Source: Escherichia coli
GTDB taxonomy: Bacteria; Pseudomonadota; Gammaproteobacteria; Enterobacterales; Enterobacteriaceae
Reading direction: 5' to 3' (one strand)
Assembly: GCF_003790525.1 (NCBI RefSeq)
Contig: NZ_CP033635.1
DNA: 64,000 bases
Shown here piece after piece: positions 12,366 through 23,624 of this stretch (its first letter is position 1; each line of letters opens with the position of its first letter). The notes below the pieces were generated by a model. It ran no database searches and was not told the DNA's origin. It saw only the letters and a program-made list of their open reading frames with translations. The translations under genes and the position numbers were made by a program.

Positions 12366-12423
12366 AATTAACTACACCATTAACTACACCGTTCGGCGCA
12401 CTGTATGAAACAACGTGGAACAA
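12366..12423 (+). repeat. Arm module, left end: AATTAACTACACC ATTAACTACACC, then 19 nt, then ACAACGTGGAACAA
   Basis: The same two-part module recurs in the same orientation at 23567..23624, next to int. Probable arm-type Int/RDF binding sites. Confidence 0.6.
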
Positions 12424-13466
12424 ATAGACACAAGCGGCAGGCTATACCGTTATCATTTTTCAGCTATCCGTCATGAAGCTGGTGGATGATCACGGATAAC
12501 CAGGCATCTACAGCGCCTTAAAAAGCTGAACCCGACAAACATTTCTGCTTATCGGGTCCGATCGCTCTTTCTACTCGTGGCAGATGAGTTTACTAGGAAG
12601 GGGGGAACATTGTATCAGGCTATCCCCTTTCTGTGCTGATTCGGCTGGTGAATGATCTACTTGGGGCACTACACTTTTCGGATAGTGCGGGTATCCGGTT
12701 TTCTGCCTCATCGAATTTTAAGCCTTCTGACGGCCTGTATATCATTTCCTGTGGAGTTGCCGCCCTGATAGCGAATACTGCGGCAGCATGTGATTTACCC
12801 CCCGTTCTGTTGATGTTTGATGTGGCTGGTTGATGTGCTGCCATGTTTTCCGCCAATGGTGGAAAAGCCCACCAGCGCAACGCAGGACGCATAAAACCAT
12901 TGCGATGACTCTGGACGCAAAACCACGTTTAACGATGTTTTGCACTGAACCAGAATACTGTTCGTTTTTGTCTCGATGTCCGTACGTATTACGTCCGCAC
13001 CTAATCCGGCATCATGCCCACCAGCGTAACGCATTTTTTTAATTTCGTGGCTGTGCGTCCACCAGCTACGCCGGAATGGGGTATTCCGTTTCAACGGAAC
13101 AGGTATGACGAACATAATCGCACCTTCTCCCGAAAACGGTGCGACCTGCATCATCGAAATGGTGATTCAGCTACTCGGCGATTTTCACCATTCAGAATCT
13201 GGCGGGTGAGTTATCCAGCTTCCACCAATGGGGGATTCTGGAACAATCAACGGGTTACGCCTTATCAGCAAAAAAGCACATCAACTGTAAAGGAAATCGT
13301 TATGGTTGCTGGTGGGCTGCGTCACCATCATGGTGATGATGCTGTCCAGTCAGCCGGAACGGTTGAACAGGGTGGCTATGGGTCACTCTGTTGTGCGTTA
13401 TTTGCGTGATCCTGGTACGGGGTGACTATCTTTCAGATAGTCGGTTGCCTGGTTACACGAAAAAAT
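12424..13466. other. ORF-poor, Chi-rich segment at the integrase-distal end of the island
   Basis: Only short, mutually overlapping ORFs (131 aa or less) in all six frames. Five Chi octamers: + strand at 12478 and 13308; - strand at 12869, 13018 and 13059. 18-bp direct repeat GCCCACCAGCG(C/T)AACGCA at 12867 and 13016. Confidence 0.6.
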
Positions 13467-13838
13467 TTACTTCCTGCGTTTATCCTGCTTTGTATGCCCG
13501 TGCTGAATGCCCCGCAGTGGATCTTCTTTTTTCAGGTCGATCCCCATGTCCGTTAGTGTTTTTGTGGCGGCGGTTCTTATGGCACAAATCAGGTCTCTTT
13601 CCGGTTCCCGGGTTATGGTTGCCTTCCGGATGCATGCCGTTCGTCGTTCCGTTACATACTGACGCGCTTCATCACTTGCCGCCTGTTTCAGTAACTCACC
13701 CCAGCGATTAGCCGCCCGTCGCCATAAACCTTTCGCTTCCAGTTCTTCCGCTTTGTCATCATGCACCATAAGCATAATCCCATTGATACCTGTTAACTCT
13801 GAATGGTTGGTTTCTGTTCTTTTGATAATTTCCCGCAT
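13467..13838 (-). CDS. PerC-family transcriptional regulator (copy 2)
   Basis: Core MVHDDKAEELEAKGLWRRAANRWGELL is the PerC/Pch signature and parallels the paralog at 17352..17624. The internal ATG at 13769 (100 aa) may be the true start. Confidence 0.7.
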   Translation of the reverse strand: MREIIKRTETNHSELTGINGIMLMVHDDKAEELEAKGLWRRAANRWGELLKQAASDEARQYVTERRTACIRKATITREPERDLICAIRTAATKTLTDMGIDLKKEDPLRGIQHGHTKQDKRRK

Positions 13839-13840
13839 AG

Positions 13841-13872
13841 CTTATTGTATGACAGTACTGTCCCACAATAAG
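13841..13872. promoter_or_regulatory. 32-bp nested palindrome in the divergent perC2 / orf96 control region
   Basis: CTTATTGTatGACAGTACTGTCccACAATAAG. Overlaps the aaggag RBS of the 13884 ORF. Confidence 0.5.
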
Positions 13873-13883
13873 GAGTTGCACGC

Positions 13884-14174
13884 ATGAGAATGACTAGGCA
13901 CAAAAAACAGATTCTTGAACTCTACAAACCTGAGTATCGCGATTGGGTGCGGGTGGAGGCCGGAGATCCGCCTTTTGATGTTCGTGGTGTGACAGTGCTG
14001 CTCTATGGTTCCGAATATCGGCGATATCACATAGAGGCAACACGAAGGACGCTAAACGCTATGGTTCGTGATAAGTTGCTGGAGCGTGTGAAAGTCCGTG
14101 AGCCACGTTTTGATGTGCGTATTGGTGGCGATGGTGCGCATTGCACGGTAATCCGCTATGGCCTGGTAAGGTAA
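13884..14174 (+). CDS. Hypothetical protein, 96 aa (island cargo)
   Basis: ATG preceded by aaggag. No family recognised. Confidence 0.6.
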   Translation: MRMTRHKKQILELYKPEYRDWVRVEAGDPPFDVRGVTVLLYGSEYRRYHIEATRRTLNAMVRDKLLERVKVREPRFDVRIGGDGAHCTVIRYGLVR

Positions 14175-14204
14175 GCCATCGGGTAAATCAGATGATTAAA
14201 TCAC

Positions 14205-14226
14205 CAGAATGTAAATTTACATTCTG
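14205..14226. terminator. Perfect 22-bp palindrome between convergent ORFs
   Basis: cagaatgtaaatttacattctg. No clear T-tract. Confidence 0.4.
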
Positions 14227-14276
14227 CCAGCCACCAGCTACCCTCCTCAAAATTGAGGACCCTTTTTATCAACTGG

Positions 14277-14558
14277 TTACCGCCGCAACCGTTCCGGCTT
14301 CTTCCACTGATAAGTGTTTTTCGCGCTCTCCTGATACATCGCCACGCGTCGACGGTATGCCAGCAACTCTAGTACTCTGATTCGTATGTCGCGCATATCC
14401 ACGCCGTTAAGCTCAATACCATCACGGCGCATTACATCAGCAACAACACGCACATAATTTTCGGCGGTCACGCTGTCCGGCTGCGTGGCCTGTTCGTCAT
14501 GCTGCTGGCTGATTCCGGTAACGCGGCGGATTAATCCCAGTAGTTCGACTTCTGTCAT
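14277..14558 (-). CDS. Hypothetical protein, 93 aa
   Basis: Track ORF 14277..14756 runs through the cos/cosB DNA. The internal ATG at 14558 (MTEVELLGLIRRV...) lies just past cos copy 1. Confidence 0.55.
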   Translation of the reverse strand: MTEVELLGLIRRVTGISQQHDEQATQPDSVTAENYVRVVADVMRRDGIELNGVDMRDIRIRVLELLAYRRRVAMYQESAKNTYQWKKPERLRR

Positions 14559-14591
14559 TGTGCCCCCATCGCTCTGATAGTCTGGTGTCGT

Positions 14592-14656
14592 CGGGTCCTT
14601 TCCGGCATGTGGACCCGTTACGGGGCGTCGACCTCGCGCGTTTTCACTATTTATGA
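14592..14656 (+). other. Lambda-like cosQ-cosN, copy 1; predicted 12-nt cohesive end GGGCGTCGACCT at 14623..14634
   Basis: GGGTCCTTTCCGG..CCGTTACGGGGCGTCGACCTCGCGCGTTTTCACTATTTATGA closely parallels my recollection of lambda cos (..GGGTCCTTTCCGGTGATCCGACAGGTTACGGGGCGGCGACCTCGCGGGTTTTCGCTATTTATGAAAA). Confidence 0.8.
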
Positions 14657-14672
14657 AAATTTTTCGGGATCC

Positions 14673-14769
14673 ATGTCCGGTTTCTCTGCAAGTTAACCAT
14701 ATGAAAAATATAAAAACATGCTTTCCATGAACCGGACATGCGCAAAAAACAGACACTAAAACCGGACAT
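14673..14769 (+). repeat. cosB-like array: three AACCGGACAT sites (14673..14682 inverted, 14730..14739, 14760..14769) around an A/T-rich spacer
   Basis: Position just after cosN, and the one-inverted plus two-direct layout, mimic lambda R3-I1-R2-R1 with a different site sequence. Confidence 0.6.
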
Positions 14770-14837
14770 CGAACCAGTTAACCGAAAGTGTGCACAAATC
14801 ACATTCATTGCTGCGAGTGATTAACAAGTTATCGGCT

Positions 14838-15272
14838 TTACTGTTCTGTATCGGCTGATTGCTCCATGCTGGCACGGCGAACGCTTACGGCATGACGCCA
14901 CCCAGCCAGAAAGCCAGCCATTTTATTTCGTGCCTTGCTCACATCTTCCGGTGAATAGCCGTAAATATGCAAACCTTCATCAAATCGATGTTCTGTTTCT
15001 TCACTGGAGTACTCGTCACGCTCAGATGAAAGCAGCCTCGCAAACATAATTTTTTCCAGCGCACTGGTTTCTACGTGATATCCGATGGTCTGAAGATGGC
15101 TTTTACCTGAATACCAAAGCAATGTATGCCCGATGTGATAACCGCCAGACTTTCCGCGATCCGCATTAAGATACGGCATCCCCTGTTTGGTCCATGCGCG
15201 AATAGTGGTTCTGTTAACCTTGAAATGTTCAGCTATTTCCTGCTGACTTACAAAACAAGCTTTATCAATCAT
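14838..15272 (-). CDS. Nu1-like small terminase / packaging-specificity protein (N-terminal wHTH)
   Basis: VSQQEIAEHFKVNRTTIRAWTKQGMPYL aligns by eye with lambda Nu1 VNKKQLADIFGASIRTIQNWQEQGMPVL. Starts 67 nt downstream of cos copy 2, the lambda cos-Nu1 arrangement. The C-terminal half is not recognisably Nu1-like. Confidence 0.75.
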   Translation of the reverse strand: MIDKACFVSQQEIAEHFKVNRTTIRAWTKQGMPYLNADRGKSGGYHIGHTLLWYSGKSHLQTIGYHVETSALEKIMFARLLSSERDEYSSEETEHRFDEGLHIYGYSPEDVSKARNKMAGFLAGWRHAVSVRRASMEQSADTEQ

Positions 15273-15339
15273 AATGTTACCTTAACTGCATGGTTAAATA
15301 TCAATCAAGTGGTGGTGGTGTCACCTTCACGGAAAAACG

Positions 15340-15404
15340 TCATAAATAGCGAAAACGTGCGAGGTCGACGCCCCGTAACGGGTCCACATGCCGGAAAGGA
15401 CCCG
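15340..15404 (-). other. Lambda-like cosQ-cosN, copy 2 (inverted); cohesive-end sequence at 15362..15373
   Basis: Reverse complement of 14592..14656 with 2 mismatches in 65 nt. No AACCGGACAT sites between it and the Nu1-like start. Confidence 0.8.
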
Positions 15405-15429
15405 CAAAAAAAGCCGGATTTCTCCGGCC
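15405..15429 (-). terminator. Rho-independent terminator after the capsid operon
   Basis: Minus strand reads GCCGGA-gaaa-TCCGGC followed by TTTTTTT. Nearly identical hairpin at 17322..17345. Confidence 0.7.
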
Positions 15430-15502
15430 TTGTCTCAGATGGTTTTCAGTATGCGATAGATGTCGCCGTCATCGCCCTGGTTTGTGCCATCGTTCCCCCT
15501 GC

Positions 15503-15838
15503 TTATCGGGCCAGCGGCTGAACGGATACGCCGGAACCCGCAAAGGCGGCGCATTTTTTCGCATCGGTGTCGACGCTCTCAGGCCAGTTAACGGCGGCAA
15601 TATTGAATATCCCCGTCTTGTAACACTGTGCTGATTTCTGCTTTGACGTGTCCACAGGGTACGAGGTCAGATAAACAGCCTTGCCAGATTCCTTACCATC
15701 CCACGCCTTAAACTCGCCATTGTCTGCCAGCATCAGCGGGGTAAATTCCTGAATAACGCCAGCATCAGCGGCAAAATGTACCAGCGTCGTGGATACCTGT
15801 TGGCTGCCTGAAAATAACTCAATGTATGGAGCGTCCAT
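15503..15838 (-). CDS. Head decoration protein (lambda gpD-like)
   Basis: 111 aa. TPLMLADNGEFKAWDG and AAFAGSGVSV parallel gpD TPLMLDTSSRKLVAWDG and TAFAGTAISIV. Confidence 0.8.
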   Translation of the reverse strand: MDAPYIELFSGSQQVSTTLVHFAADAGVIQEFTPLMLADNGEFKAWDGKESGKAVYLTSYPVDTSKQKSAQCYKTGIFNIAAVNWPESVDTDAKKCAAFAGSGVSVQPLAR

Positions 15839-15849
15839 AGAATCCCCCG

Positions 15850-16905
15850 TTAAGCAATTTTGACGGTAACAAATTTGCGAATATCTGCCGGTACAGGCTG
15901 CGGTGCGCTGTGCGTCTGCACGTACTCAATCGCCGGATCGCCGTCCTCAATCCAGTTTTTCGGGTAGTACATGTTTTGCGTTGCGCCCGTTCTTACCGCT
16001 TCCTGATCCATAATCGCACCATATGCCACCAGCCCTTTATTGTTGGTGTTACCCAGGACCAGCAAATCAGGCTCAAGGAAATATTTTTCGGTCCCGTCGC
16101 TGTCAGTGTATTTGCCGGAATAGACGATAAGGGCCAGATCACCAAGATAGCCTTTAAAGCTCACCACTTCGCCCAGGTTTTTACAGGCCAGCTCGGCGGC
16201 GGATTCTGATCCACGGGAAAGATCGTACAGTTCACGGAATTTTTTAAAGCTGCGTAATGTGCGCCATACCTCACCGCCCATAATCATGACGTTGGCGGGG
16301 CAACCTGCCTGATCAGCATAAAGCTCGATGTCATAGATTGGGTCGTGCATGTCTTTATCCTGCTGGGACCATTTTTTACCACTGGCCTGCTGTATGATGC
16401 AGTTTTCCGGTATTTTCCAGTCGATTTCATAGCGTTCTATGCCTTCGCCCTCAATGATGTTTTTTCCGGTCGTTACCGCATTCACCGCCAGCCATTCCAC
16501 GCGCGCCTTAATGGCGTTTATCTGGCGGCGCATGTTGCCAGTAATCAGGCGCATACGGCGGTAAGTTGGATCGTTAAGCTGTGCCGGATCTTCTCCATCC
16601 ATGCGCATGATGGTCTTTGTTGGATCGATTTCGTGCTTTGGCTTCATGTAGCCTGGTTTAATCGTGCTGGTTTCGTACCCTTTATCGCGCTGGACCTGAC
16701 TACCCACCATAGGAGAACAGAACGCTGACATCGTAACCTCTTCAATGTCCAGGGTGTCCAGCATGATGTTTTGGGTGTTGAAGGTCGCCACGTTCGGGAA
16801 AAACAGCGTGGTAAACAGCGGACTAAATTTATATTCCGAAATATCCCCGCGATTCAGGTACGCGAAAAGCTGGTTAGTTGTAAGTGCCTTTGCTTTGCCT
16901 GTCAT
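15850..16905 (-). CDS. Major capsid protein (lambda gpE family)
   Basis: 351 aa. PGYMKPKHEIDP and YYPKNWIEDGDPA parallel gpE PGYVKPKHEVNP and RYPKNWVTTGDPA. Confidence 0.9.
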   Translation of the reverse strand: MTGKAKALTTNQLFAYLNRGDISEYKFSPLFTTLFFPNVATFNTQNIMLDTLDIEEVTMSAFCSPMVGSQVQRDKGYETSTIKPGYMKPKHEIDPTKTIMRMDGEDPAQLNDPTYRRMRLITGNMRRQINAIKARVEWLAVNAVTTGKNIIEGEGIERYEIDWKIPENCIIQQASGKKWSQQDKDMHDPIYDIELYADQAGCPANVMIMGGEVWRTLRSFKKFRELYDLSRGSESAAELACKNLGEVVSFKGYLGDLALIVYSGKYTDSDGTEKYFLEPDLLVLGNTNNKGLVAYGAIMDQEAVRTGATQNMYYPKNWIEDGDPAIEYVQTHSAPQPVPADIRKFVTVKIA

Positions 16906-17111
16906 TATTCACCTCCGTGAACCTGATTGATACCCAGCGCCGCACGCAAATAGGTGCGCACCTGCCAGCCTGTTGACGGCTCAACCATCGCCAGCGGATC
17001 AAGTCCTGCCGCAATGCCTGCTTTTACATTCTGCTGGTGGCGTTCCTTGAGCGCCTCCACGATGTCGGGGCTTATGTAGACCGTCACCCCGCCTTTTTTC
17101 TCTTCTGCCAT
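16905..17111 (-). CDS. Hypothetical 68-aa protein, first gene of the capsid operon
   Basis: Stop overlaps the MCP start (TAATG). aagaggaa RBS. Confidence 0.6.
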   Translation of the reverse strand: MAEEKKGGVTVYISPDIVEALKERHQQNVKAGIAAGLDPLAMVEPSTGWQVRTYLRAALGINQVHGGE

Positions 17112-17145
17112 AGTCAGAAATTCCTCTTTGACTTAAAAAATCATA

Positions 17146-17195
17146 ACTGGATGTTCATCCAGTCCTGATTATAATCATGATTGCATTTTGCGCAA
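17146..17195 (-). promoter_or_regulatory. Candidate sigma70 promoter of the capsid operon with an overlapping 18-bp palindrome (CTG-N10-CAG)
   Basis: Minus strand: TTGCGC (17195..17190), 16 nt, TATAAT (17173..17168), then ACTGGATGAACATCCAGT (17163..17146). Confidence 0.5.
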
Positions 17196-17321
17196 CAATA
17201 TTGAGTTACGTTGCAAATTATGAAATGATTATCCCGATCATGTGTGTCAGTTCACCATAAAAAACCTCGTATACAAAAGCCCCATAAGCCCCCTGTGACC
17301 TTATCGGGCTTTTTTTAGGCG

Positions 17322-17345
17322 TAAAAAAGCCGGATTGCTCCGGCT
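17322..17345 (-). terminator. Rho-independent terminator after perC copy 1
   Basis: Minus strand reads AGCCGGA-gcaa-TCCGGCT followed by TTTTTT. A plus-strand hairpin with a T-run sits back-to-back at 17286..17317. Confidence 0.7.
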
Positions 17346-17351
17346 GTGTGC

Positions 17352-17624
17352 TCACTTCTGCGGGTAGTTGCGCCATATTGCTTTGCCAATACCAGCTATC
17401 CCCATTTGTTTTTCAGTGCGATTAACTGACCTTTTCAGAGCGCCTAAATCATCCGGCGGCTCCGGTGGCCTCTGTGCCTTACGGATACATTCCGCGCGAC
17501 GCATTGCCACCTGTTCGCGCTCCTTGTCTGTCTCCACCAGCCTCATAACTTCACCCCATCGCGCCGCCGCCCTCCGGTAAAAGCCTTTTGCCTCGAGTTC
17601 CTCCGCTATGCGGTCATGTACCAT
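17352..17624 (-). CDS. PerC-family transcriptional regulator (copy 1)
   Basis: 90 aa from MVHDRIAEELEAKGFYRRAAARWGEVM. Start is 11 nt after the ssb stop with a ggggg RBS. Track ORF 17352..17744 overlaps ssb. Confidence 0.75.
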   Translation of the reverse strand: MVHDRIAEELEAKGFYRRAAARWGEVMRLVETDKEREQVAMRRAECIRKAQRPPEPPDDLGALKRSVNRTEKQMGIAGIGKAIWRNYPQK

Positions 17625-17634
17625 CGTCACCCCC

Positions 17635-18045
17635 TCAGAACGGAATATCATCACCGTAAGGGTCATCGCCTCCCGCTGGTGGCTGATTACCCTGTGTGCC
17701 TGTGGTTTTGCGTCTGTTCCCGCCAGGACGTGCCGCACGGGCACTGATTACGCTGTCTGCAATAACCTGCCAGCCCTGCCGCGTTTCCCCGTTCTGTCCG
17801 GTCCACTGGCTGACCTGCATCGTGCCGGATACGCTGGCAACGTCGCCTTTTTGATGTTTAGCCAGAAAGTCGGCCTGTTTGCCAAATGCGATGACCGATA
17901 ACCATAACGTCGCCTGTCCGTCCTGTGCCTGGCCGCATGGTAAAGATACCGCCATACGCGCCAGCGTCATCGGTGTACCCTTACTGGTCTGTTTTACCTG
18001 CGGGTCGTCCACCAGCCGCCCGTAAGCTGCTATCTGTGCTGTCAT
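17635..18045 (-). CDS. ssb: Single-stranded DNA-binding protein
   Basis: 136 aa with an OB-fold N-terminus, a Gly/Pro/Gln linker and the acidic tail DDIPF. Confidence 0.85.
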   Translation of the reverse strand: MTAQIAAYGRLVDDPQVKQTSKGTPMTLARMAVSLPCGQAQDGQATLWLSVIAFGKQADFLAKHQKGDVASVSGTMQVSQWTGQNGETRQGWQVIADSVISARAARPGGNRRKTTGTQGNQPPAGGDDPYGDDIPF

Positions 18046-18284
18046 GCTGTCTGCTCTCCGGTTTTAACGTTGATGGTTGTTACCTGTTCTGCTTCGGCAA
18101 TATCCCGCTCTGTCAGCGTGGCAAAGTTTGCCGCCGTCGTTGTCATGAATGCGCTTATCAGTTCGGGATGTGCTTTCGCGTATCCTTCCCCTGTGTTGCG
18201 GTCGATGATTTTTATCGCCACCCTCAGCCAGTGCTCTGTAAGGTCAATGGCGCGGTGATCTGTCTTTTTGTGGCTTACCTTCAT
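18042..18284 (-). CDS. Hypothetical protein, 80 aa
   Basis: ATGA overlap with the ssb start. No family recognised. Confidence 0.6.
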   Translation of the reverse strand: MKVSHKKTDHRAIDLTEHWLRVAIKIIDRNTGEGYAKAHPELISAFMTTTAANFATLTERDIAEAEQVTTINVKTGEQTA

Positions 18285-18287
18285 GAT

Positions 18288-18656
18288 TTACTCCAGAGTA
18301 CCGCTATTGCTGCTGTCGTTAACCGGATACCAGGCAAATACCATCGATTCACCACAGTGAACAAACTTCTTATCCGGCAGATAAAGGCACTCGCACATTC
18401 CCTCATCAGGACTATGCGGACTCATGCCCAGCTCACTGGTCAGCACGGGTAAGATTTCGCGGCAGGTGTTCCCCGCACCGAAATAATCAACCTCACAAAG
18501 CGCCCATGCAGCAATCGGGCTGTACCATTCCGTGCCGTCGTCGTCTTTGAACTTAGCCCACCAGCCAGGAAGGGCAGTTGATATGCTCAGTGTTTCAATT
18601 TCAGTGTTCATAAATTTACCTTCGGTATTTTGTCCTGCTGTTCGATTTTTATTCAT
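18288..18656 (-). CDS. Hypothetical protein, 122 aa (alternative start at 18611)
   Basis: First gene downstream of the iteron region. No family recognised. Confidence 0.6.
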   Translation of the reverse strand: MNKNRTAGQNTEGKFMNTEIETLSISTALPGWWAKFKDDDGTEWYSPIAAWALCEVDYFGAGNTCREILPVLTSELGMSPHSPDEGMCECLYLPDKKFVHCGESMVFAWYPVNDSSNSGTLE

Positions 18657-18660
18657 TGCT

Positions 18661-18860
18661 CACCATCTCTCACTTTTACTACTCACTTTTTAAAGCGTCT
18701 CGCTTCGTCTCACTTGAGATTTTTGTGTTTTGTATGTGCATGTTTCATAAGTGTTTTTTCACTGCTCACTTTTGAGCATGTATACAGGTGAGAAAGTGAG
18801 TAATTGTGTTAATATTTTGTAAAAACCTCACCATTACTCACTTTTACTACTCACTTTTTA
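18661..18860. repeat. Putative origin of replication: CTCACTT iterons flanking an A/T-rich core
   Basis: CTCACTT at 18669, 18682, 18709, 18765, 18837 and 18850, with an inverted copy at 18794. 32-bp direct repeat at 18661..18692 and 18829..18860. Immediately 3' of the initiator gene. Confidence 0.7.
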
Positions 18861-20264
18861 CAGTGGTCCTACATCATCACCATCAATGTAAATCACGGCG
18901 TCTTTTTCCAGTTTGGCTAACCATCGCCGCATATTTTTCACGTCATACCCAAGCCGTTTCATGTCATCACGTAACAGCGGGATCGTGCACTTGTCGCCGT
19001 TCTGTGTGCGTGAACGGATGCACCCCCATAGCGCGGTATGGTTTTCCGTCTTGTTGCCTGCCTCCTCGATGCGCTCCAGTTCAGCAGGGGCGCGGGGAAC
19101 GTCAATCACCACCATGGACACAATTTCTTCGCCATCTGTATCGGTGAACACCTCCACGCTTTTAAGGTCGTATGCACTCTCTTTTGGCTCCTCTGCGTCC
19201 TTCATCTTCGTACACGCCGCAACCAGTGCTGTAACGTCTGAATTTTCCCTGCTGATTCGGTACTCTGCATCAAGCGCGGCACGGAATGCACTGGAACCAC
19301 GCGCCCCCTTTGTTTCATCCTTGCCGGAATGGTGAACCACCAGCACCGTGGCCCCTGTGGCCTGCTTTATCGCGTCACACCCCTGGATAAATGCGCCCAT
19401 ATCACGGGAATCATTTTCATCATTCCCACCAAAGCAACGGGCCAGCGTGTCGATCACAATCAGCCGCACATTTTCGCCCGTTCTGCTCTTAACAAGTCCG
19501 GCAGTCCTGATAACCTGCTCCACATAGTCAGGCGATGCAGGGAAAACAGGCGCGTTAATGATGCACAAATCTGTAACCACCTTGTCGTGGGTTATCTCCC
19601 ACGCCTTAACGCGGCGTTTTACGCCCATGCTGCCTTCACCAGCGATATAGATAACCGCACCCTTACTTACCCTGCGGCCTCCCCATGCCATACCTGTGGC
19701 AACATGGCACGACCAGGAAATGGCGAGGAACGATTTATAAGAACCGCTGGCCCCGTAGGTGCTGCATAATGACTCAGCCGGAATAAGCCCCTTAATGACG
19801 TAGCTTTGCTGCGCATCGAATCCCTCAGAACCCCATGAGATGGGAAGTGTGATTTTTCGCTTTCCGCCATTCATGACCAGGCTTTCCCCTCTCTCCCATG
19901 TTTCCCGTAGTCGTGGTAGCTGGTCGCTCCAGTCCTCCAGCAGTTCGAAATTTTCAGAAAGTAGCCGCGCCTCCTGGACTCCGGCGATCGCCAGTTTTGT
20001 GGCAATGGTCAGCATCTGCATATCGTCCAGGTTTCCGGCGCGTATGACCTTTACCCTGTATCGTCCTTCATCAACAATCTGTAAGTTGTCCAGTTCGCTT
20101 AACTGATAACGGCCCAGATAAACCGGAGGGATGGGATCGCCTGCTTTTTTGGCCTGTGCAATCATGTAATGTTCTGCAAAGGAGTGAGCATTATCACCCG
20201 CAAAAATAACCGCCTCAGTGTGTTTATCTTTCGGTAACAGTTTTACGTTCGGTGCAAGTTTCAT
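18858..20264 (-). CDS. Replication initiator, RecA/DnaB-like (AAA_25-type) ATPase with a C-terminal wHTH; Pri-Rep analogue
   Basis: 468 aa. Walker A GASGSYKS, Walker B LIVIDTLARCF, VLVVHHSGKDETKGARGSSA. Confidence 0.8.
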   Translation of the reverse strand: MKLAPNVKLLPKDKHTEAVIFAGDNAHSFAEHYMIAQAKKAGDPIPPVYLGRYQLSELDNLQIVDEGRYRVKVIRAGNLDDMQMLTIATKLAIAGVQEARLLSENFELLEDWSDQLPRLRETWERGESLVMNGGKRKITLPISWGSEGFDAQQSYVIKGLIPAESLCSTYGASGSYKSFLAISWSCHVATGMAWGGRRVSKGAVIYIAGEGSMGVKRRVKAWEITHDKVVTDLCIINAPVFPASPDYVEQVIRTAGLVKSRTGENVRLIVIDTLARCFGGNDENDSRDMGAFIQGCDAIKQATGATVLVVHHSGKDETKGARGSSAFRAALDAEYRISRENSDVTALVAACTKMKDAEEPKESAYDLKSVEVFTDTDGEEIVSMVVIDVPRAPAELERIEEAGNKTENHTALWGCIRSRTQNGDKCTIPLLRDDMKRLGYDVKNMRRWLAKLEKDAVIYIDGDDVGPL

Positions 20265-20548
20265 TTCTTACCCCCTGCGACCAGCATTTCACGGATTTTG
20301 CGGATATAACTTGCAGCACGTTTCTGATTAACGGCTTTACGATGGCCCACCAGCGTGAAATCACGCCGGAACTGATAAACAGGCATAACGCAGTCATATT
20401 CGTAGCCTTCACGGCGGTAAGTGATGCGACGTTCCTCCACGCCCTTAATCATTACCGTGCCGCCGTAGTTATCACGGAAAATATCGCCGGGACGGATTTC
20501 AGGACGAGCGGGGCCGCTGGCATTAACGCCAGAATTTTTATTTTTCAT
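20261..20548 (-). CDS. Small conserved phage/satellite protein (DUF4222-like by recollection)
   Basis: 95 aa. ATGA overlap with the initiator start. Confidence 0.6.
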   Translation of the reverse strand: MKNKNSGVNASGPARPEIRPGDIFRDNYGGTVMIKGVEERRITYRREGYEYDCVMPVYQFRRDFTLVGHRKAVNQKRAASYIRKIREMLVAGGKK

Positions 20549-20553
20549 GTTTT

Positions 20554-20781
20554 TTATTCTCCGGTGTGCTGTTCTTTATATCTGTCGTGAATTGCCATCA
20601 CTGTATTTAATTCATTAATAACAGCCGTTAATAGCGTACGCACGGCAGAAAACATCATTGAATCAGATTCATCGCCACTTTCCTGCACATCAATTAAATT
20701 AAGTAGTAATGCGTCCATTTCCTTTGCGCGGATTAATGCCTTTTCACAATGAAAAATAACACCAAAGGGTATTTTATTCAT
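20554..20781 (-). CDS. Hypothetical protein, 75 aa
   Basis: ATG at 20781 overlaps the icd-like stop (ATGAATAA). Track ORF starts 14 codons earlier. Confidence 0.55.
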   Translation of the reverse strand: MNKIPFGVIFHCEKALIRAKEMDALLLNLIDVQESGDESDSMMFSAVRTLLTAVINELNTVMAIHDRYKEQHTGE

Positions 20782-20971
20782 GACTCCCCTCCTGACGGAT
20801 ACGGGCGGCGAATACAGCGACACAACCGGACGGGCAACGGTTACGCGCTTCGCGTTCCGTCCAGGCGGTCACGTGGATAATTTGAGATTCTCCGGCACTC
20901 AGTGCCAGAAAACGCCACACAAAGGCGGTTTGTGTGTGCGCTAGTCGTGGGGTATGCTGTGTTCCAGCCAT
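20774..20971 (-). CDS. Icd-like (P4 host cell-division inhibitor-like) protein, 65 aa
   Basis: MAGTQHTPRLAHTQTAFVWRFLALSAGESQIIHVTAWTEREARNRC..VFAARIRQEG fits the remembered Icd-like pattern. aggag RBS. It forms the C-terminal part of the implausible 308-aa track ORF. Confidence 0.65.
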   Translation of the reverse strand: MAGTQHTPRLAHTQTAFVWRFLALSAGESQIIHVTAWTEREARNRCPSGCVAVFAARIRQEGSHE

Positions 20972-21056
20972 AATCGTTACTCCTGTTAACGGTTTGGTTA
21001 GACGCCCTGCATGTGTTACAGCACTGCGGGGCGTTGTCTTTTTAACGGCTTTCGTG

Positions 21057-21104
21057 ATAGGGTGTACACCTATCAAGCAAAAACATAACGCTATAGGTGT
21101 ACAC
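21057..21104. promoter_or_regulatory. Operator-like sites sharing TAGGTGTACAC in the divergent icd / RHH control region
   Basis: ATAGGGTGTACACCTAT (21057..21073, near-palindrome) and ATAGGTGTACAC (21093..21104, abutting the RHH ATG). The minus-strand TTGACA hexamer overlaps the RHH start. Confidence 0.5.
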
Positions 21105-21299
21105 ATGTCAACAGTTATTAAGCGAGATAAAAAACCAAAGGGAACAGGAAAAGCCCCCCCATTCCATATGCGAATAGCTCCAGAACTGAAAGAGCAGTTT
21201 GATAATGAGGCCAGCAATGATGGGGTAAGCCTAGCCAACTGGCTTAAAGAGTTGGGGCGCGCCGAACTAAAGCGACGCGGCATTGAACCTAAAGGCTGA
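21105..21299 (+). CDS. Ribbon-helix-helix (Arc/CopG/HicB-antitoxin-like) DNA-binding protein, 64 aa
   Basis: FHMRIAPELKEQFDNEASNDGVSLANWLKELGRAELKR is a typical RHH fold signature. Opposite strand to the rest of the island. Confidence 0.7.
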   Translation: MSTVIKRDKKPKGTGKAPPFHMRIAPELKEQFDNEASNDGVSLANWLKELGRAELKRRGIEPKG

Positions 21300-21302
21300 T
21301 GT

Positions 21303-21428
21303 ATGACTGAAAAGCAGACCGATAACAAACTTTCTCTACCAGAGAATAAACCAGCAGGCTTCTTACCAAGAAAAATCCTTGATGAGATCAAACGCCGCCA
21401 GCGCCGCAAGGCCAAAGAGCAGGAATAG
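21303..21428 (+). CDS. 41-aa basic micro-protein, co-oriented with the RHH gene
   Basis: ATG 4 nt after the RHH stop. MTEKQTDNKLSLPENKPAGFLPRKILDEIKRRQRRKAKEQE. Followed by a terminator. Confidence 0.4.
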   Translation: MTEKQTDNKLSLPENKPAGFLPRKILDEIKRRQRRKAKEQE

Positions 21429-21459
21429 CCCACCAGCAAGCCAGCACACTGATCACATT

Positions 21460-21488
21460 GGCCACCGTGACAGGTGGCCTTTTCTTTG
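21460..21488 (+). terminator. Rho-independent terminator of the RHH operon
   Basis: GGCCACC-gtgaca-GGTGGCC followed by TTTTCTTT. Confidence 0.7.
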
Positions 21489-21540
21489 CCCGTTATCCGG
21501 CAATTGTGGCGCTTCGCCACACGGTTGATATAATTCCCCT

Positions 21541-21611
21541 GCTCAGATTCATTTTTTGCGCGGCAGGTAAATTGTTCAGAAAGGCGGCTCCTTATCGGGG
21601 CCGCTTTTTTT
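21541..21611 (+). ncRNA. Candidate ~70-nt small RNA, antisense to the alpA-to-icd leader
   Basis: Extended -10 TGaTATAAT at 21526..21534. Hairpin plus T7 terminator at 21580..21611. No ORF. Confidence 0.3.
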
Positions 21612-21752
21612 ATGTCTGAAAAACCGCGATTTTGTTGTTTTTCAGTTTCACCAGGCCGAACGAAGCCCCGCCCATGTTCGGGCGTATATCCAGTCTTCAT
21701 GGTTAAATCTCTGTATTAGTGGATGGGTGGCGGCTGTGTGCCGCCAGTCTTT

Positions 21753-21941
21753 TTAGTGAACTGCCTCGCAGCTTTCCTTCCATGCCAGAACTTCGGATAA
21801 AGACCAGCCAACGGAACGACCGCCCAGCTTACGCCGTGATGGGAATTGTCCGGCCTTTTCCAGGCGGTAGCGGCATGAGCGGCTAAGGCCTGTTAGCTTT
21901 TCGCATTCTTTTTCACGTATAAAGCGATCAGTGCTTAACAC
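21753..21941 (-). CDS. alpA: AlpA-family (MerR-like HTH) phage regulatory / excision-control protein
   Basis: 62 aa, GTG start. REKECEKLTGLSRSCRYRLEKAGQFPSRRKLGGRSVGWSLSEVLAW is the AlpA signature. Confidence 0.8.
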   Translation of the reverse strand: MLSTDRFIREKECEKLTGLSRSCRYRLEKAGQFPSRRKLGGRSVGWSLSEVLAWKESCEAVH

Positions 21942-22100
21942 TATTGCCCCCTTTCGTTTCTTAAAGAGTTATTTCGTGTTCTATTGCGTTGGGATGTGTC
22001 TGATTGTGTCAGGGTGATTCAGAGTTGGCAAATGTTGGTGGCGGGTATTTTACAGAAACGGGGTGATTTTAATAAAAATCATTTTAATTCAGTATTATGC

Positions 22101-22133
22101 AAAGGCATAAAATCTCGTTTTATGCCTTTTTTC
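22101..22133 (+). terminator. Strong hairpin plus T-run in the int-alpA spacer
   Basis: AAAGGCATAAAA-tctcg-TTTTATGCCTTT followed by TTT. Confidence 0.55.
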
Positions 22134-22233
22134 TCACTATTTAAAGCGTTATTCGCTAATGTATAAAAAACCAGTTGAGCATTAAAAATCAGCAACTTAT
22201 AAATCTGTATACTTTTTGACCTCTTGTTCGTGG

Positions 22234-22267
22234 TTGTTTCACGTTGTTGTGTATTGTTGCACGTTGT
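22234..22267 (-). repeat. Two more ACAACGTGNAACAA motifs (22234..22247 and 22254..22267), 20 bp apart
   Basis: Same 14-mer as in both arm modules (12410 and 23611), here in the opposite orientation just downstream of int. Confidence 0.5.
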
Positions 22268-22315
22268 ATCTGTGCACTTATCCAGTATGCGCATACTGAA
22301 AAAACACGAAAAAAA

Positions 22316-23566
22316 TTATTTTCTTCTGGCTACTGGTAGCGTGGTTACGTTTTCATGTGCTCCCGCCAGTATCTCCAACCGCTCCACCCACATATCCAGC
22401 GCATTGCGTTTCGCATCCAGATAACGGGAATGATTATAAACTCGCTGCATTCCTGGCATCTGGTGGCCTGTAAGCTGCTCCACGACGTGAGGATCCACGC
22501 CTAAATCGTTCAGCATCGTTGTAAAGGTGCGCCGGATGTCATGCAGTGACCATTGAGGGTGTTTTAGCCTCCTGTGCGCTAATCTGCCGTACTGCGATAC
22601 GCTGGCCTCCTGTTTCACTTCCCCCAGTAATAAGCCCGTGTGCCTGTTCTGCTCCACCAGCCGCGTGACGAACGGCAGGATCGCTTCCGGTATGGGCCGG
22701 AATATTGCGACCTTCGTTTTGCTGTGCTCCTTCGGAACGGTCCAGAGCATTTCCGTGAAATCCCACTCCCCGATCTCCGATAACCTCAGTTCTACCGTCC
22801 TGGCTCCGAAGACAATCAGGAGGCGGATTAGTGCGACGTAGTAAGGGGAAAATATTTTTTTGTCCAGTGCCTGCAATAATTCGCCCAGTTCTTTGGTGCT
22901 TAAGACACGTTCGCTTATATCCGGTTTTTTCCCAACGTCCGCCACGTTCAGATCGTCCAGAACGTTGCTGATTGCATAGCGCCGCCTCCGGCAAAACTTA
23001 AGCGCCTGTTTGCACGCCTGTAGCACGAATCCGGCAGTAACAGGCGTTCGCTTTGCCACCCGATCAAAACAGGCCAGCCAGTGCCGTAGCTCGCATTTAT
23101 CCAGCGGCATAGCACCAATGTGCTGTATTACGTGATTATTAAGTCGCCTTTTCAGGGCGATATAATCCACGCGGTTTTCCTTTACGTAAGACTCAAGCCA
23201 GTAGGTGAGCGCATCTCCAACCGTTACAGGCTTTAACGCTTCCTGCATGGTGTAATTCATCTCATGACGTGGATTTTTCCCCTCAGCCAGCCATGCGCGA
23301 CACTGGGCGGCTTTTTCCCTGGCTGATTTCAGGCTCAGATCAGGATAATTTCCCAGCTTAATACGTTCCGGTCGTGTCTCTCTTCCCGTTCCGGCCCTGT
23401 AAGTGAAATACCAGGTTAAAAGGCCGCTGGTTGAATGCCTGACGCTCAGATTTCCACCGTCATTAAGAAAGGCTGTTTTTTGGGCGGGTGTGCCGTTGAT
23501 TTTCCTTAGCTGTGTATCGCTCAGCTTGTTAAGTGCTCTGGTCATAATTTTGAATCCGGTCATCAC
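22316..23566 (-). CDS. int: Tyrosine recombinase, P4-type integrase (N-terminal arm-binding domain plus catalytic domain)
   Basis: 416 aa. LSDTQLRK N-terminus, catalytic HDIRRTF...GHQ..MQRVYNHSRY. Alternative start at 23545. Confidence 0.9.
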   Translation of the reverse strand: MMTGFKIMTRALNKLSDTQLRKINGTPAQKTAFLNDGGNLSVRHSTSGLLTWYFTYRAGTGRETRPERIKLGNYPDLSLKSAREKAAQCRAWLAEGKNPRHEMNYTMQEALKPVTVGDALTYWLESYVKENRVDYIALKRRLNNHVIQHIGAMPLDKCELRHWLACFDRVAKRTPVTAGFVLQACKQALKFCRRRRYAISNVLDDLNVADVGKKPDISERVLSTKELGELLQALDKKIFSPYYVALIRLLIVFGARTVELRLSEIGEWDFTEMLWTVPKEHSKTKVAIFRPIPEAILPFVTRLVEQNRHTGLLLGEVKQEASVSQYGRLAHRRLKHPQWSLHDIRRTFTTMLNDLGVDPHVVEQLTGHQMPGMQRVYNHSRYLDAKRNALDMWVERLEILAGAHENVTTLPVARRK

Positions 23567-23624
23567 AATTAACTACACCATTAACTACACCGATCGTTGC
23601 ACAAAGGGCTACAACGTGAAACAA
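23567..23624 (+). repeat. Arm module, right end (AATTAACTACACCATTAACTACACC, then 19 nt, then ACAACGTGAAACAA)
   Basis: Begins 1 nt upstream of the int start codon. Direct repeat of 12366..12423. Confidence 0.6.

Follow-up and report, generated by a model that had tools for sequence, protein, structure and literature searches.

The inverted cos pair of an EcCICFT073-family island in Escherichia coli: a PhiR12-type cos2 and its possible role in packaging

The packaging module and its two facing cos sites

The 64-kb window analysed here, a stretch of 64,000 nucleotides from Escherichia coli contig NZ_CP033635.1, carries an island of about 11.2 kb in tqsA (12366..23592, minus strand), which is assigned with near certainty to the EcCICFT073 family of cos phage-inducible chromosomal islands (PICIs), a group of phage satellites, together with the cos1/Rpp packaging mechanism of that family. 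The packaging module of this island, in which two cos sites named cos1 and cos2 face each other across the gene rppA, forms the subject of this analysis, and the overall explanation, blending the identity of the element with a proposed role for cos2, is judged likely. Direct attachment (att) repeats of 26 nt bound the island at 12366-12391 and 23567-23592, its insertion splitting tqsA, and the assignment draws on the annotation of the PKF11 locus (99.3% identical), which lists int, AlpA, RepA helicase, SSB, PerC, capsid, decoration and a split tqsA, and on collinearity with the island of CFT073, the EcCICFT073 prototype. When complete E. coli genomes were searched by megablast with 14400-15600, CFT073 was among the best matches. 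The int gene (22316-23566) and most other island genes lie on the minus strand, and the element is a small island (within the 10-20 kb range), mostly unidirectional, that combines an integrase, AlpA and replication genes between att flanks. The RefSeq annotation of the PKF11 island contains no terS or terL, although not every island open reading frame (ORF) was run against the profile library. Read in the island's own direction, the gene order is capsid genes, a terminator, cos1 (cosQ-cosN-cosB1), rppA, the inverted cos2 (cosB2-cosN-cosQ) and ORF93.

The two sites are built from a pair of 65-nt blocks, 14592..14656 and the reverse complement of 15340..15404, which differ at only two positions (14638 and 14646), as the initial annotation of this DNA had described; the inverted repeat reaches 78 nt at 91% identity (14592-14669 / 15327-15404). 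The cos2 arm (14592..14669, plus strand; formerly copy 1) comprises cosQ at 14593-14603, cosN GGGCGTCGACCT at 14623-14634 and a conserved stretch to the right of cosN, while the cos1 arm (15327..15404, minus strand; formerly copy 2) places cosQ at 15403->15393 and cosN at 15373->15362 in a cos-then-gene layout upstream of rppA. Both arms share cosQ GGGTCCTTTCC as well as this cosN, and they are the only two cosQ-cosN sites in the window, with 0 expected by chance. In a MAFFT alignment with the circularised lambda cos junction (NC_001416, ends joined), cosQ, the spacing, cosN and about 35 nt rightward align, and BLAST identity to lambda-like phages is 84-85% over 76 nt (lambda ~84%), placing the earlier comparison with lambda on a formal footing. 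Each copy thus has cosQ about 30 nt upstream of a 12-nt cosN within lambda-like flanks. The one change reported in the 12-nt cohesive end is real, being a single G-to-T substitution relative to lambda at position 6 (G6T) that is present in both window copies, and the reported distances are correct, with 67 nt between copy 2 and the rppA ATG (15272) and 683 nt between the blocks.

The window copies match one-to-one the sequences labelled 'EcCICFT073 cos1' and 'EcCICFT073 cos2' in Fig S1A of PMC6739421, and the two names were mapped to the window through that figure and the primer table of the same paper. The CFT073 arrangement has been published under these names (Fillol-Salom 2018 ISME J, PMC6092414; 2019 Mol Cell, PMC6739421), so the initial statement that no satellite with duplicated cos sites was known is wrong: the inverted cos pair around rppA is already known, its recovery here is a rediscovery, and the feature as flagged is textbook for this satellite family, with no discovery in itself. 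The words inverted, inversion and orientation are absent from both PICI papers (PMC6092414, PMC6739421), cos2 is not mentioned in PMC9026076, and a search of the literature for 'PhiR12', the phage group treated below, returned unrelated papers only. Three points were not found in the literature searched, namely the match of cos2 to a prophage cos, the exchange of cos2 as a module and the natural inversion of the cassette.

The cos2 array corresponds to the cosB of PhiR12-type phages

The cosB of cos2 (14670..14769, plus strand), referred to below as type A, contains three R-type sites with the sequence AACCGGACAT and an A/T-rich spacer between the first two. This sequence occurs exactly three times in the window, at 14673-14682 (minus), 14730-14739 (plus) and 14760-14769 (plus), against an expected count of 0.08, and none of 100 shuffles reached three. 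The sites follow the first block only, between copy 1 and rppA, with one inverted and two direct copies, in full agreement with the earlier description. The proposed likeness to the lambda R3-spacer-R2-R1 geometry also holds: measured from the first base of cosN, the sites start at 51, 108 and 138, compared with 49, 109 and 151 for lambda R3, R2 and R1. The first two cos2 sites are mutually inverted, like R3 and R2. Differences from lambda reside in the recognition sequence (ATGTCCGGTT versus CGTTTCC in lambda), in the third site, which is direct relative to the second whereas that of lambda is inverted, and in the lack of a terS gene after cos2; the gene downstream of cos1 is rppA, whose product has no counterpart of the terminase C-terminal region.

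A BLAST search of 14585-14840 against phage records identifies the phage class that carries this array, with matches to PhiR12_1, PhiR12_2, PhiR12_2_star, PhiR12_4 and PhiR12_5. Window 14591-14769 is 94.4% identical to these five phages (PhiR12-type records PV340549-PV340554) over 179 nt covering cosQ, cosN and the three sites, the array part being almost exact and the site positions (51, 108, 138) identical. In PhiR12_1 (PV340549) the matching stretch has the lysis gene Rz on one side and, on the other, the Nu1 and A genes of the phage itself, with 49 nt separating the end of the third site from Nu1; in the island the array is followed by the 3' end of rppA on the other strand, and the similarity stops right after the third AACCGGACAT site. 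Nu1 starts at 196 from the first base of cosN in PhiR12 and at 191 in lambda. The PhiR12 Nu1 aligns with lambda Nu1 in its C-terminal part only (residues 73-164, 46%), its N-terminal DNA-binding region being unrelated. Because the sites occupy lambda-like positions and the block is nearly identical to the DNA upstream of the PhiR12 Nu1, the cos2 array reads as a genuine phage cosB of another specificity class. By its sequence, cos2 is a complete phage-type cos, with AACCGGACAT as its putative R site.

Prophages of this class are common. Of 5426 complete E. coli genomes, 1148 (~21%) carry PhiR12-type cosB plus Nu1 at a coverage of at least 80%. The helpers used in the published work are lambda and phi80, both with CGTTTCC-type R sites, and the CFT073 prophage phi4, and no PhiR12-type helper is among them (PMC6739421). 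The prophage phi4 was considered as a carrier of the array and rejected, its cosB being of the phage 21 type with CATGTCGG sites. Far from being 'completely divergent' junk, cos2 represents the packaging site of a very widespread prophage type, one that is absent from the published helper set.

RppA, cosB1 and the published function of the two sites

The gene between the arms is rppA (14838..15272, minus strand), encoding redirecting phage packaging protein A, of 144 aa. The assignment is by homology: the window protein is 96% identical to CFT073 RppA, matches RppC of PDB 6hlk (E=4e-32) and retains the DNA-reading residues, with R21, T22, R25, W27 and K29 all present; of these, R21 and T22 are needed for cos1 recognition. 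The gene had been called Nu1-like, a label that does not survive comparison with Pfam Phage_Nu1 (PF07471), on which RppA scores 16.6 bits against a cut-off of 30, residues 8-56 falling on profile positions 3-52 in the N-terminal helix-turn-helix only; the PhiR12 Nu1 scores 67.9 bits on the same profile. The protein works like a Nu1 DNA-binding domain yet is not a member of the Nu1 family. A tblastn search of RppA against 50,697 phage records gave no match, and a phage ancestor of cos1 and Rpp could not be traced; a one-genome-per-species scan for RppA relatives, based on a single-protein query, confirmed no relative.

The cosB of cos1 (cosB1; 15192..15332, minus strand) is delimited here by the primers of the published phi80 chimera (PMC6739421) and includes the first 27 codons of rppA. 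It harbours a single conserved block at +53 to +65 from cosN, the element ACACCACCACCAC at 15321->15309 (minus strand; bp 53-65), for which an R3 equivalent, R3-PICI, has been proposed at bp 48-65 of cos1 (Murialdo & Feiss 2022, PMC9026076). The element is kept in all RppA loci, in the RppB loci and in a divergent, 68%-identical Rpp locus. With one R3-position element and neither R2 nor R1, cos1 resembles the cosB proposed for N15 and Ravinvirus (PMC9026076). When cos1 and cosB1 were compared with phages by BLAST, only the cosQ-cosN part matched.

Published experiments on CFT073 define how the two sites behave. Each cloned cos alone renders a plasmid transferable by lambda and phi80, and in EcCICFT073 itself deletion of cos1 lowers transfer, deletion of cos2 raises it and the double deletion abolishes it (PMC6092414). 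With lambda and phi80 as helpers, cos2 is therefore dispensable, while cos1 is essential and stimulated by RppA (PMC6092414, PMC6739421). RppA binds the helper small terminase, TerS, and recognition of the phage cosB is lost in the resulting complex; stimulation is confined to plasmids with the cosB of cos1, the cosB of cos2 being unresponsive, and a phi80 chimera given cosB1 turns RppA-dependent (PMC6739421). The pairing implied in the initial annotation, between the array and the protein encoded beside it, is thus reversed, with the array-less cos1 as the RppA-stimulated site; since the published array copy is not required, and RppA leaves its cosB unstimulated, the array is not the target of RppA.

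These data also bear on the earlier suggestion of split work, in which one copy would initiate packaging and the other terminate it. That suggestion draws on the obvious R-site array in one copy only; however, cosQ and cosN are present in both copies, and termination through cosQ-cosN depends on orientation while the copies are inverted. Either copy is sufficient for plasmid transfer, and an island left with only cos1 is transferred more efficiently than the wild type (PMC6092414). The split is hardly tenable, the published single deletions excluding it (PMC6092414).

cos2 varies as a module among related islands

The comparison set comprised 26 IMG/VR loci encoding Rpp relatives. Twenty RppA islands among them carry cos1 at a fixed position with the same cosB1 and an inverted cos2 downstream of rpp, while a 21st RppA locus ends within rpp, leaving only cos1 visible. 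The cosB of cos2 falls into two types: type A, the AACCGGACAT array, in 11 loci, and type B, with GGTTGTTGT / ACAACAACC / GGTTGTTGT at +50, +109 and +187, in 9 loci. Islands of the two types are collinear and 97.6% identical up to 2 nt past the rppA stop codon; there they enter a swapped block of 171 or 191 nt that is wholly different between the types, and similarity resumes inside the arm.

Type B likewise corresponds to phage DNA. A scan of IMG/VR for the type B array pattern recovered at least 120 loci; among the matches listed, 82 lie 50 nt from a lambda-type cosN, and in these the next gene is terS on the same strand in 61 (phage contigs) and rppA on the opposite strand in 10. An N15-like Enterobacter phage has a single copy of the type B R-site GGTTGTTGTTTAAT, placed 25 nt ahead of the start codon of terS; the window cos2, being type A and not type B, differs in this respect from the N15/Ravinvirus cosB. 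In complete E. coli genomes no near match to the type B cosB stands beside terS among the 30 records listed of the 46 that matched; these are annotated as hypothetical protein or bear no annotation, and they look like islands. Phage occurrences of the type B cosB came from the pattern scan only.

The same architecture extends to more distant relatives. RppB islands (L026-L028) have two inverted cos sites, at about 2871 on the plus strand and 3678 on the minus strand, with a non-lambda cosN whose core differs between cos1 and cos2 of one island and among islands, so that the two sites would give incompatible cohesive ends. Their cos2 resembles phage cos sites of another cosN type that precede terS genes. 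A satellite with a 68%-identical Rpp (L029, 2457-3420), embedded among the tail genes of a prophage contig of 60 kb, possesses cos1 but no cos2. Its cos1 is immediately preceded by a 131-aa ORF that resembles a duplicate of the C-terminal half of Rpp.

Inversion of the cassette and exchange between the arms

Inversion was examined with an artificial junction as the query, in which the ORF93 flank and the arm were joined to cosB1 and rppA in reverse complement. This inverted junction is matched end to end in 15 complete E. coli genomes, while the native junction is present in 68, giving 15 inverted of 83 in total; both orientations that the initial annotation had suggested looking for in related genomes therefore exist. 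In WP4-S17-ESBL-08 the island occupies the CFT073 site by phoQ and encodes RppA and ORF93 proteins identical to those of CFT073, and its flanks are collinear with CFT073, while the 740-bp cassette is reversed at 99.4% identity, the exchange point lying between cosQ and the right edge of cosN. An assembly artefact was rejected as the source, given arms of only 78 nt and agreement among 15 complete assemblies, whose strains bear separate names and come from several countries and hosts. Over 571 nt the 15 inverted junctions are 100% identical, which is most simply read as a single inherited event; the inversion in these genomes probably arose once. The native arrangement is found in all 21 IMG/VR RppA loci and in 10 assemblies with the exact RppA of the window.

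The arms also carry traces of sequence exchange. They differ at 3 to 12 of 65 positions across islands, with cosQ-proximal variants common to cos1 and cos2 in a mosaic pattern. The G6T variant of cosN occurs in both copies of the window and of one IMG/VR island (L025), as well as in phage contigs with terS (L057, L098), while in L013 and L015 the two copies carry different changes in or beside cosN. The presence of the same G6T in both copies suggests either gene conversion between the arms or matching to the cosN of a helper. On this evidence the 78-nt arms appear to exchange sequence by gene conversion and occasionally to invert the cassette, and such inversion and conversion also indicate a physical interaction of the two sites.

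A programmed switch, in which the orientation of the cassette would set rppA expression or packaging specificity, is a separate proposition, and it is here that the earlier idea of an invertible specificity cassette stood in one half and fell in the other. Flipping is borne out: the exact cassette is reversed between collinear flanks in the 15 genomes, the segment is bounded by inverted repeats, the exchange point falls within the cos core and the arms show gene conversion; cuts at both cosN would, moreover, leave identical overhangs from which the cassette could religate either way. A switch of specificity is not, as both cos sites are complete in either orientation and specificity is unchanged. 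The junctions fit one inherited event, the native orientation prevails in the remaining complete genomes, IMG/VR loci and further assemblies, and a weak promoter-like match for rppA (15324->15297) lies inside the cassette. No recombinase or invertase gene is present in or next to the segment, which contains only rppA and is flanked by ORF93 and the decoration gene, the island integrase lying 7 kb away. A programmed cassette is accordingly very improbable.

Possible role of cos2 in packaging

The mechanism favoured here assigns different routes to the two sites. At cos1, the route would be the one established by experiment for the CFT073 island, the only island for which helper-dependent induction, packaging and interference have been shown: a heterocomplex of RppA and helper TerS recognises cosB1 and brings the large terminase, TerL, to cosN, the island concatemer is packaged and the helper is blocked. 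TerL would cut at this cosN, in keeping with the published genetic evidence from plasmid transfer and deletions (PMC6092414), and packaging would pass by way of rppA along the concatemer as far as the following cos1. At cos2, a second helper class, whose TerS carries a different N-terminal DNA-binding domain, would package the island directly, without Rpp. Whether cos2 does provide such Rpp-independent packaging by helpers of the PhiR12 class is, on sequence grounds, an evenly balanced proposition. Termination through cosQ is orientation-specific in lambda. With the two copies inverted, recombination between the homologous cos blocks of the arms would not delete rppA, and, given this orientation-specificity, a terminase that had set out from one site would not stop at the other.

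In its full form, the favoured reading holds that cos2 may be an exchangeable, helper-matched module: an inverted copy of the cos of a prophage class (here PhiR12), swapped between types A and B and between cosN types by recombination with phages, allowing Rpp-free packaging, and joined to cos1 by arms that undergo gene conversion and occasional inversion. This composite is put forward tentatively, its chance of being right in every part falling a little short of even. Several observations weigh against it. The R-site role of AACCGGACAT rests on position and conservation, and no integration host factor (IHF) consensus (WATCAANNNNTTR, at most one mismatch) is found in the spacer of the cos2 cosB, a further difference from lambda. 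The CFT073 genome matches the PhiR12-type cosB in one place, with none elsewhere. About 10 of the 30 best-matching island genomes are listed with extra cos-like matches, against a background of ~21%; these counts per genome are coarse, and no clear co-occurrence of island and PhiR12 prophage follows from them. With lambda as helper, deletion of cos2 improves transfer (PMC6092414), so cos2 could be a mild burden and not an asset, and the cos1-only island L029 indicates that cos2 is not essential to the family. Finally, if Rpp also captures a PhiR12-type TerS, cos2 might be little used while Rpp is made.

Part of this evidence would also fit a neutral or slightly harmful leftover, acquired by recombination with a PhiR12-type (or type B) phage through cosQ-cosN homology and persisting because it is small. 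The rise in both lambda- and phi80-mediated transfer upon cos2 deletion (PMC6092414), the near-identity to phage DNA (94% overall, array almost exact), which points to recent exchange, and the existence of L029 are all in keeping with such an origin. A leftover would not, however, account readily for a second cos in the same place and inverted orientation in RppA and RppB islands that are only ~85% identical, nor for the full three-site array and intact cosQ-cosN kept by each cos2 variant. Repeated replacement by other intact phage cosB sequences, as opposed to decay, suggests selection, and the leftover explanation is considered unlikely.

Alternatively, as the initial annotation had proposed, cos2 could act as a decoy that lures a matching, or any lambda-like, helper terminase to an unproductive site, adding to interference. 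An authentic helper-type cosB would suit this purpose, as would the high copy number to which PICIs replicate once induced. A decoy, however, would have no need of an intact cosQ or of a precise cosN. In addition, cloned cos2 gives productive plasmid transfer and is thus a working packaging site (PMC6092414), and Rpp already interferes strongly (PMC6739421). A decoy function is therefore improbable. Should the helper-matched reading of cos2 hold, with transfer by PhiR12-type phages through cos2, these virulence-associated islands would have two routes of packaging and could draw on more kinds of helper than has been assumed, and the prediction of island spread would be affected.

Comparison with other satellites

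The closest counterpart is the EcCICFT073 module, which shares with the window island the gene order, the inverted cos pair, cosB1, the AACCGGACAT array in cos2, ORF93 and RppA. The two differ in location, the window island residing in tqsA and that of CFT073 next to phoQ; in cosN, which is of the lambda form GGGCGGCGACCT in the CFT073 copies and G6T in both window copies; in the arms, nearly homogenised in the window with 2-3 differences versus about 10 in CFT073; and in replication, with a RepA-type helicase in the window and a primase in CFT073. More broadly, the cos islands SaPIbov5 and SaPIbov4 of the Staphylococcus aureus pathogenicity island (SaPI) group and the helper-embedded satellite 11capE also carry a copy of the helper's cos, 11capE and its helper having 258 bp in common (90% identity) where the cos lies, and SaPIbov4 is reported with two putative cos sites (PMC6092414). 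These elements are Gram-positive or prophage-embedded, in contrast to the present island, and no Rpp-dependent second site has been described beside their helper-type site.

Flanking genes and other features of the island

Outside the cassette, on the cosQ side of cos2, lies ORF93 (14277..14558, minus strand; 93 aa), hypothetical in both PKF11 and CFT073, with no Pfam match and kept beside cos2 in all loci examined. Upstream of cos1 are a lambda D-like head decoration gene (15503-15838, minus strand; Pfam HDPD, E=4e-17) and a lambda E-like major capsid gene (15850-16905, minus strand; PF03864 Phage_cap_E recorded for the product), both in agreement with RefSeq. The presence of decoration and capsid genes (15503-16905) contrasts with the 2018 description of EcCICFT073, in which the island has no capsid morphogenesis genes and is packaged into helper capsids of full size (PMC6092414).

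Directly upstream of the cos1 cosQ, inspection reveals a hairpin with a T-run (GCCGGAGAAATCCGGCTTTTTTT; 15406..15428, minus strand), the probable terminator of the capsid/decoration transcript; a consensus scan for promoters and terminators did not list it, yielding four promoter-like sites versus 1.9 expected. The first 160 nt of the cos1 query (15334-15493, minus strand), comprising the terminator flank and the arm, have counterparts at 90-92% in about 500 further E. coli genomes, O157:H7 strains among them, and the left flank of cos1 may also derive from a prophage right end.

A 137-aa gene situated between cos1 and the decoration gene (C_RS07020 in CFT073) is missing from the window island, in a further departure from CFT073. 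It is present in CFT073 and in all 20 of the IMG/VR RppA loci that reach that far. Its loss removed about 349 bp and left a 9-nt overlap where the ends join (window 15485-15493), a deletion common to PKF11 and 7 of the 10 assemblies with the exact RppA of the window. The sole island stretch not collinear with PKF11 (99.3% identical elsewhere) is 21037-21383, near the Icd-like and YlcI genes, which indicates a segment replaced in the regulatory region; in the window it is spanned by a 308-aa ORF (20774-21700, minus strand). Two PerC-family paralogues, both on the minus strand, lie at 13467-13769 and 17352-17624, one on each side of the packaging and capsid block.

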